Source: an uncultured Candidatus Saccharibacteria bacterium (GTDB taxonomy: Bacteria > Patescibacteriota > Minisyncoccia > Sungbacterales > SURF-37). From it: 36,197 nt of DNA. The notes under the pieces were generated by a model that was not told the DNA's origin, did no database searches, and saw only the letters and a list, made by a program, of their open reading frames with translations. Positions 19,898 through 20,064 of the stretch are shown here, in pieces. The DNA lies in assembly GCA_964373495.1 (NCBI GenBank), contig CAYJUW010000001.1, positions 1 through 36,197 of the forward strand, in the 5' to 3' direction. How positions within the stretch are numbered: position 1 is the first letter of the stretch; every line of letters starts with the position of its first letter. Both the position numbers and the translations under genes were made by a program.

Positions 19898-20037
19898 ACC
19901 GCACCGCACGCGGTGCGGTATATGATTTTGAACGAGATCCCTCGTCCCGCTTTCGGCGGGACTCGGGATTATTGTTTGTTCCCGCCATTCATCCGCGCCG
20001 CCCAGCGGCGCGGTATTCTGGCGGACAAACAATAAAA
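19898..20037. repeat. Three-hairpin structured element, copy B
   Basis: 138/140 nt identical to 28710-28849 by hand alignment. Hairpin coordinates are given in the findings. Confidence 0.9.
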
Positions 20038-20064
20038 AGCCCTGGCCAGCGGTCTGGCCAGGGC
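20034..20064 (-). terminator. Rho-independent terminator of the 20095-20454 gene
   Basis: On the minus strand, GCCCTGGCCAG-ACCG-CTGGCCAGGGC (20039-20064) is followed by TTTTTATTGTTTG. Confidence 0.8.

Follow-up and report, generated by a model that had tools for sequence, protein, structure and literature searches.

A small gene for a secreted protein, carried on the minus strand of the DNA stretch analysed here (36,197 nt in full, hereafter the window), is followed by a predicted terminator at 20025-20064 that runs into one copy, copy B, of a multi-copy hairpin repeat. How did a terminator come to share its T-tract with a repeated hairpin, and does this arrangement act on the gene or belong to the repeat? 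The preliminary description of this locus had proposed that the T-tracts of three minus-strand terminators, at copies A, B and D, each double as the 5' arm of the long hairpin of the element (hairpin 3), and that such a fixed junction reflects either read-through control, protection of mRNA 3' ends or an insertion preference for terminator T-tracts. The coordinates of all features discussed are collected in Table 1.

Table 1. Predicted features at the junctions of copies A to D (coordinates in the window).
Feature	Coordinates	Strand	Support and remarks
Composite copy A, diverged	17992..18131	+	module 3 at 18063-18129, scoring 91 bits (covariance model)
Terminator hairpin of gene 18197-18616, copy A junction	18134..18173	-	-20.4 kcal/mol; followed by TTTTTTT and ATTGTTCGT
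Promoter-like site TTGACA-16-TGnTATTTT	19840..19867	-	precedes gene 19326-19688, just past the far end of copy B; consensus match only
Composite copy B, 140 nt	19898..20037	+	module 1 hairpin 19897-19920, module 2 hairpin 19937-19969, then module 3
Module 3 (hairpin 3) of copy B, 67 nt	19969..20035	+	covariance model R1, 89 bits; covariation
Shared T-tract TTTTTATTGTTTGT	20025..20038	-	20036-20038 host T-run; 20025-20035 the 11-nt outer arm of hairpin 3
Intrinsic terminator hairpin, copy B junction, gene 20095-20463	20039..20064	-	fold of -24.1 kcal/mol and independent terminator scan
Gene for a 122-aa protein, signal-peptide-like N-terminus	20095..20463	-	its terminator forms the copy B junction
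Copy D, module 3 remnant	20674..20726	+	GGTATTC, nested 29-nt insert (20681-20709), then CTGGCAGACAAACAATAA as 3' arm; 5' arm missing
Terminator hairpin of gene 20756-21262, copy D junction	20733..20755	-	-16.9 kcal/mol and terminator scan; followed by CTTTTTTT and ATTGTTTGT
Composite copy C	28710..28849	+	without terminator; 3' end abuts a hairpin of another repeat family, beside small gene 28853-29361

The protein encoded upstream of the copy B junction matched no Pfam family in a Pfam search. On the minus strand, its terminator reads GCCCTGGCCAG-ACCG-CTGGCCAGGGC at 20064-20039, then TTTTT and ATTGTTTGT; the stem is perfect, with 13 bp of which nine are GC pairs, and is closed by a 4-nt loop. 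A GC-rich stem-loop, an immediate T-rich tract and a same-strand stop codon upstream are thus all present, and from its letters the structure can be classed as a putative intrinsic terminator. The last 11 nt of the T-tract already belong to the element. Its module 3 is ordered as TTATTGTTTGT, CCGCCA, a TTCAT loop, a variable GC apical stem-loop, a TATTC loop, TGGCGG and ACAAACAATAA, and the partner arm ACAAACAATAA of hairpin 3 is found, on the minus strand, at 19979-19969. The minus-strand RNA of copies A and B folds as the terminator hairpin followed by hairpin 3, in which UUAUUGUUUGU pairs with ACAAACAAUAA (-65.7 kcal/mol, z-score -8.9, for copy A; -69.8 kcal/mol, z-score -8.7, for copy B), and the MFE and centroid folds of the junction RNA are one identical structure.

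The double use of the T-tract therefore holds for copies A and B, on sequence and folds alike, but not for copy D, where a terminator is joined to a single arm. That arm, at 20726-20716, is real; no partner arm was found within two mismatches, and the RNA fold leaves hairpin 3 unclosed with a z-score of -1.8, which is not significant, so that the closed hairpin 3 described for this copy was in error. Likewise, a terminator hairpin following the stop codon directly is found exactly so at copy D, where it starts right at the stop codon, whereas 23 nt separate the two at copy A and 30 nt at copy B (from the stop at 20095). Copy C had correctly been set apart as lacking an adjacent terminator hairpin. 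Three genes lie between copies A and B, the middle module of copy A is a hairpin from another repeat family, and the nested-insert form of copy D recurs at C18:2965-3064. For the neighbouring gene labelled a HAD hydrolase, no Pfam hit at E <= 0.01 backs the name, and all that can be seen is an N-terminal motif of the DxDG type.

The repeat is modular and measures 140-250 nt overall, with a unit of 140 nt in the genome that carries the window. It opens with AATGAAAATCT and a small GC hairpin ending in GGTAT (module 1), continues with a middle hairpin that is variable but always ends in GGGG or GGGA (module 2), and closes with module 3, a 67-nt hairpin with outer arms TTATTGTTTGT and ACAAACAATAA. 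In relatives, the middle hairpin reaches ~150 nt (CCCC.TCACCAATTTTGC ... GCAAAATTGGTGAGGGG), which brings the whole repeat to ~250 nt. The assembly of the own genome spans 784 kb at 99% completeness and holds ~18 copies with an intact 3' end. Some of them are nearly indistinguishable: copy B is identical to C11:2540-2678 over 139/139 nt (100%), differs from copy C at two of 140 positions (98.6% identity, 138/140) and is 95% identical to C15:7388-7542, and the flanks of these four copies are all unrelated. A covariance model built on nine copies was used to scan other genomes, and matched 28 of the 61 genomes of the same order, including 10 of the 11 of the same family, with the highest counts in G008 (20), G001 (12), G007 (11) and G005 (8); no match was found in 150 other genomes sampled across the phylum. 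No Rfam family matched either, in a gathering search of the window and 11 loci or in E-value searches with the element and with a 250-nt copy of a relative, the hits being only tRNAs and noise. A small ORF (an ATGAAAATC... frame through the composite) was considered as the reason for its conservation and rejected, because length differences between copies are not multiples of three, the middle module can be as short as 30 or as long as 150 nt, and the stems covary.

This covariation was quantified on an alignment of 59 distinct copies from the own and 24 related genomes; note that the alignment was fitted to the model and leans towards structure. In it, 97.6% of the cells are paired and compensatory changes occur at 21 of the 22 pairs, none of 500 shuffles attains these figures, and sliding the partner by 1-3 columns lowers pairing to 34-60%. 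The apical stems differ completely between copies. This, together with the size of the effect, leaves little doubt, even for a model-fitted alignment, that it is the pairing itself that is maintained in the stems of module 3. G-U cells are scarce (about 13 of 1209). Since a stem selected only as RNA would be expected to show more wobble intermediates, this scarcity suggests that the constraint acts on folded DNA, in which both strands must pair. Two unpaired motifs, TTCATCC and GGTATTC, are conserved and might be recognised by a protein.

We then asked where the copies lie. In the own genome, an opposite-strand predicted terminator, i.e. an A-run with a strong hairpin, abuts the 3' end of 10 of the 18 copies. 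A simple sequence target was tried as an explanation and rejected: only 11% of the intergenic TTTAT or TTTTA sites of this genome follow a strong hairpin, too few to account for 56% of the copies (binomial p = 7e-6 against 10/18). Among relatives, a strict terminator predictor, which accepts only hairpins of at least -9 kcal/mol in strength accompanied by 5 or more T in 8 positions, and to which the end of the element offers the T-tract for free, places an abutting terminator at 42 of 84 copies; at 29 of these 42 junctions, 3-5 nt separate the stem base from the element. As a fairer control, all adjacent hairpins were counted, at element 3' ends and at control positions in the same loci. By this measure, hairpins of -13 kcal/mol or stronger adjoin 34 of 87 relatives' copies (39%) against 12% of control positions (p = 1e-10), and those of -9 kcal/mol or stronger 62% against 31%; generic hairpins being common in GC-rich DNA, the enrichment for any hairpin is only 2- to 3.5-fold. 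A-runs of three or more are associated with a strong neighbouring hairpin (Fisher p = 0.004), and since long A-runs are found mainly beside strong hairpins, they represent the T-run of the host terminator rather than a part of the element.

The copies are also oriented. With a trained gene caller, a gene end faces the 3' end of module 3 in 15 of the 18 own-genome copies, and a gene start faces the opposite end in 12 of the 18; in relatives, an ORF-end test gives 85% at the 3' end versus 60% at the 5' end, a crude test to which we attach little weight. Conversely, the own genome has ~110 predicted terminators, of which only about nine carry the element and ~90% do not. Overall, the association between repeat and terminators is beyond chance, and both the fixed junction noted in the preliminary description and a genome-wide positional bias are real and extend to 24 related genomes. 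The narrow spacing of 3-5 nt speaks either for targeting or for a strict constraint from function, and the bias itself may come from targeting or from purifying selection, that is, selective retention.

Sites without the element help to separate the host's contribution from that of the repeat. Orthologues of the genes upstream of copies A and B in two congeners have terminators of their own and no element. At the A locus, the alignment of the terminator with its G001 counterpart is unconvincing; a terminator without the element is present at the G001 locus. Among element-bearing genes of relatives, 11 have orthologues in the own genome and none of the 11 carries the element there, so that positions are not conserved between genera. 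The one clean comparison between a filled and an empty site is provided by the copy identical to B on C11, which sits between secD and secF (Pfam) with the same polarity as at terminators: it starts 1 nt past the foot of an AT-rich hairpin (GAATCATGAATC...GATTCATGATTC) and ends 8 nt before the start codon of secF. In G001, G003, G005 and G006, two congeners and members of two other genera, a hairpin is present in the secD-secF spacer and the element is absent, which identifies the secD-secF copy as an insertion; these relatives are only 63-68% identical in SecF (63-76% for relatives overall), so the ancestral site is not base-exact. Neither the secD-secF hairpin nor the hairpin next to copy C is a classical terminator. 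When the flanks of eight composite copies were compared by eye, no copy-specific direct repeat, and hence no target-site duplication, was found. Note that the AATGAAAA...AATAAA ends are constant and therefore belong to the element.

Taken with the junctions of the window, we consider that 20025-20064 is probably, if by a modest measure of confidence, an ordinary intrinsic terminator joined to a lineage-specific, non-coding, REP/MITE-like mobile hairpin element that docks at the feet of hairpins, mostly those of terminators. The element would be mobile, now or recently. It would settle in one orientation beside stem-loops that were already there, leaving 1-5 nt between their 3' foot and its module-3 end. 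Terminators would be the commonest stem-loops at which an insertion is tolerated, which would explain why about half of the copies abut one. The T-rich terminal arm would continue the short T-run of the host as TTTTT-ATTGTTTGT and so keep a U-tract; with the U-tract intact, upstream termination should survive at docked terminators, and copies placed there would be harmless and persist. We infer that hairpin feet are targeted rather than merely tolerated. Of the three options first put forward for the junction, an insertion preference fits best, in a wider form than proposed: judging from the secD-secF copy and copy C, the element seems to favour stem-loops in general, at their 3' foot, and not terminator T-tracts as such. 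The pairing of the U-tract with ACAAACAATAA is best read as the element's own terminal stem and not as a regulatory switch. Docking would predict transcript 3' ends within TTTTTATTG and a coverage that drops before hairpin 3.

The same junctions could have been kept because they improve termination. The element would then be an exapted, SPRITE-like termination or insulator module, its T-arm lengthening the U-tract of the host and its middle hairpin (GGGG) together with UUAUUGUUUGU forming an opposing terminator, so that transcription would be stopped in both directions in a compact genome. The build of the element is symmetric in the manner this would require, each strand having a stem-loop followed by an inward-reading T-rich arm, and the distance from stem base to element is tight (3-5 nt). 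In about one-third of the relatives' junction terminators, judged by eye, the host stem has a T-run on its other side too, many of the relatives' copies lie between convergent ORFs by a crude ORF test, and at C15:14818-14889 the 73 nt between a gene end and module 3 contain nothing but the element hairpin and T-arm. SPRITE repeats moreover offer a precedent for terminator-like repeats enriched at gene 3' ends (PMC3049150). Against such an exaptation, the youngest copies show no preference for terminators, copy C and C15:7404 of the near-identical set lacking one, and the C11 copy is lodged inside the secD-secF pair, where a strong terminator would harm. The large majority of predicted terminators that do without the element, the lack of positional conservation between genera and the near absence of G-U pairs, which speaks against selection on an RNA-only stem, weigh in the same direction, and we hold this explanation possible but doubtful. 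If true, it would make mobile DNA a supplier of transcription punctuation.

Targeting and insulation may also be combined. A structure-directed miniature DNA hairpin that docks on terminators in one polarity, inserting a few bases beyond the stem-loop foot in a genome devoid of transposases of any recognised family, and that by design rebuilds the U-tract it interrupts and brings an opposing second terminator, would be a self-spreading bidirectional insulator of ultra-small CPR genomes, moved by a host or trans-acting enzyme that recognises folded single-stranded DNA. We put this forward as a speculative extension of docking and think it unlikely as a whole.

That hairpin 3 acts in cis as an RNA, controlling read-through or protecting mRNA 3' ends through pairing of the U-tract with the A-rich arm, is quite improbable. 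The pairing is strong and conserved, the polarity relative to the upstream gene is fixed in the own genome, and on the gene-sense strand the conserved purine-rich internal loop GAAUA/AUGAA, as read from the sequence, could bind a protein or RNA. Yet transcription reaches the partner arm only ~55 nt past the U-tract, by which time that arm can no longer compete with the terminator hairpin. Because the A-rich arm would be transcribed after the decision to terminate, because positions are not conserved between genera and because the same element occurs behind unrelated genes and at non-terminator sites, the read-through control first suggested finds no support and is unlikely; protection of 3' ends fares no better, since transcripts released at the U-tract would be without hairpin 3. 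The start of the next gene lies 97-555 nt away, which is not what a fixed 5'-UTR element would give, G-U pairs are almost absent, and Rfam returned no match. Nor do the junctions resemble riboswitches or attenuators, as the flanking genes are unrelated, the positions unconserved and the fold single, without alternative helices. Finally, the adjacent "terminator" hairpins could be a fourth, fast-evolving module of the element, which would make the junction internal and uninformative on targeting, as module 1 holds the analogous place after AATGAAAA in tandem copies (C15:7622-7388) and most copies have some adjacent hairpin, but this is scarcely credible given that these hairpins share no sequence between copies, sit 0-30 nt past stop codons, have long A-runs mainly when strong, and have counterparts in element-free loci, both as the terminators of congener orthologues at the same place and as the secD-secF hairpin of four relatives.

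How does a docking element of this kind compare with the repeats already described? With the REP/BIME and REPIN-RAYT systems of enterobacteria and pseudomonads, it shares short GC-rich palindromic units in mosaic modular arrays, a strictly extragenic location concentrated at gene 3' ends (cf. the 15 of 18 gene ends above), a lineage-specific distribution and dozens of copies. The genome also contains a Y1 (RAYT-like) gene, as in REPIN-RAYT systems, but across 60 relatives the presence of the element is uncoupled from that of such a gene. Other features set it apart from REPs: the alignments contain no GTAG-type 5' tetranucleotide, the conserved motifs being TTCATCC and GGTATTC, and instead of an inverted-REP doublet there is, in module 3, a single hairpin of 67 nt whose outer arms are AT-rich and whose 5x5 internal loop is conserved. 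To our knowledge, direct docking on a terminator T-tract has not been described for REPs. The bacterial MITEs (Correia/NEMIS, ERIC, RUP, BOX, Nezha) are likewise shorter than 300 bp and non-coding, have terminal inverted repeats that pair into a long stem (arms of 11 nt here) and occur in many copies (~18 here), nested and in tandem; filled and empty sites between relatives, as found at secD-secF, are a further common feature (general description in PMC3184786). Unlike MITEs, the element comes without target-site duplication, parent IS with the same ends or DDE transposase in the genome, shows a strong polarity and hairpin-foot placement, and has stems that covary freely, so that pairing is conserved rather than a terminal sequence bound by a transposase. 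The element thus works like REP/BIME and MITE repeats but lacks what defines either, namely the GTAG motif or RAYT linkage of the former and the target duplication or parent IS of the latter.

The nearest repeat tied to termination is SPRITE of pneumococci, which has short T/A termini, is linked to termination and strongly enriched near gene 3' ends, and for which its authors could define neither a target duplication nor a mobilising enzyme (PMC3049150). SPRITE is itself a terminator-like hairpin with a U-tract, whereas the element described here docks on a separate host terminator, to which it would add a distal U-tract and possibly an opposing terminator; the two are unrelated in sequence and come from different phyla, and the present one is GC-rich and modular. 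For the placement rule, precedents lie elsewhere. Group IIC introns sit [quoted passage not shown] (PMC1702495), as the element does just past a terminator or inverted repeat, and REP hairpins or their immediate vicinity serve as insertion sites for several IS elements (PMC3184786). IS1397, IS621 and IS1594, which target REPs or stem-loops, share this rule and illustrate that transposition can be aimed at a stem-loop foot. At only 140-250 nt and without ribozyme domains in the Rfam searches, the element differs from group IIC introns, and no IS110-family gene is found in its genome. Integron attC sites, of 57-141 nt, are also imperfect palindromes, built of a basal stem, unpaired bases inside it and a terminal stem-loop that varies; they too conserve structure over sequence and lie in one fixed orientation behind small genes, at their 3' ends. 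They differ in that the arms TTATTGTTTGT / ACAAACAATAA, read from the sequence, hold no 7-mer fitting the R''/R' cores RYYYAAC / GTTRRRY, that a terminator lies between gene and element, and that there is no cassette array.

Several candidates for the mobilising enzyme were considered. Two RAYT-like Y1 genes of the own genome, at C33:590-1309 and C58:1037-1795, score 38.7 and 49.5 bits, below the NF047646 cut-off of 80. In front of one of them lies a hairpin, CACCGCGCCGCAGAGCGGCGCGGTG, very similar to the module 3 apical hairpin, and the C58 gene is flanked by a separate GTAGGGTCAGACCCTAC family. A RAYT/Y1 transposase was rejected as the mobiliser for want of co-occurrence: among the 60 relatives, 17 have both gene and element, 10 the element only, 24 the gene only and nine neither, and the four genomes richest in copies (G008, G001, G007, G005) have no Y1 gene. 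Retro-mobility was rejected because the own genome and the high-copy relatives alike lack an RVT_1 reverse transcriptase, as were transposases of the IS110, DDE_3 and rve types, none of which occurs in the own genome. The own genome likewise yielded no autonomous IS, no transposase with matching ends and no long element bounded by the arms. A tyrosine recombinase is encoded at C44:635-1162, near a copy at a contig end; the junctions show no dif-like hybrid site.

The usual view of small interspersed repeats is that of mere junk surviving downstream of genes. The precise junction described here, with its fixed polarity and an element end that takes the place of the distal U-tract, offers a test case for the targeting of stem-loop feet by miniature elements, a behaviour described to date for group IIC introns and a few IS elements. 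It also raises the question of how dozens of insertions can be accommodated in a genome of 0.8 Mb whose intergenic spacers are very short. In these CPR genomes, the repeat will affect terminator predictions and operon calls. It also leaves its mark on assemblies, which break at its copies: several own-genome contigs, and also Logan contigs from this strain, stop within the repeat, and look-ups with exact proteins returned only Logan contigs of the identical strain, which either carry the element or break inside it.

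A promoter-like site on the minus strand lies immediately past the far end of copy B, the composite of module 1, middle hairpin and module 3 whose 3' end adjoins a minus-strand terminator (coordinates of this and other features are collected in the table). With the site in this position, copy B fills the spacer between the terminator and the next promoter. Outside the window, an element copy identical to B interrupts the secD-secF pair of the source genome, G000 (locus L105, C11:2523-2678); the secF start codon lies 8 nt past this copy, and the intervening 8 nt are without a Shine-Dalgarno sequence. 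In 4 relatives, the secD-secF spacer holds only an AT-rich hairpin that differs by species, and no element.

At copy D, the module 3 remnant, the terminator stem has a 5' strand (CGGCUGGCA) that is also perfectly complementary to UGCCAGCCG in the downstream element remnant (window 20709-20755, minus strand). The minimum-free-energy fold of the region chooses this pairing over the terminator stem; the match may be due to chance.

Locations of the repeat copies and neighboring features (C numbers are contigs of G000)
Feature	Location	Strand	Description
Promoter-like site	window 19840-19867	minus	good match (TTGACA, 16 nt, TG-TATTTT), before gene 19326-19688
Composite copies with nested inserts	G000 C14:1115-1474; C2:9187-9548		same three inserts in both
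Other repeat with core motif	window 34362-34498; starts of contigs C45 and C27		GCGCC TTCATCC TCGCCGCAGAGCGGCGA GGTATTC GGCGC GGGCGGTAATAAA
Hairpin CACCGCGCCGCAGAGCGGCGCGGTG, then TTTCC	G000 C33:497-521		upstream of second RAYT-like gene C33:590-1309
Element copy at contig end	G000 C44:1-103		~500 nt from tyrosine-recombinase gene C44:635-1162
Recombinase fragment, 68 aa	G000 C44:1788-1937		

One of the three nested inserts common to the two composite copies on C14 and C2 is a 29-bp palindrome, CCCCGTTAGAAACGGAGTTTCTAACGGGG, located within module 3's internal loop, where TTCA is duplicated around it (CCATTCA|...|TTCATCC). The core motif TTCATCC-stem-GGTATTC is also contained in a GCGCC...GGCGC repeat that is distinct from the element and at which assembly contigs end, indicating that the motif is common to more than one repeat family.

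Regarding the RAYT-like Y1 transposase genes, a GTAG-type palindrome (TAGTAGGGTCAGACCCTACTA) occurs at least three times in the flanks of the one at G000 C58:1037-1795, a classical REP-RAYT arrangement that is unrelated to the element. The hairpin upstream of the second gene, on C33, is identical in its stem to the module 3 apex of copy B; it also serves as terminator of the gene upstream. Homologues of this second gene occur, frequently as multiple copies, in 42 of the 61 genomes of the order. The recombinase gene near the contig-end copy on C44 is the sole full tyrosine-recombinase gene found in G000.
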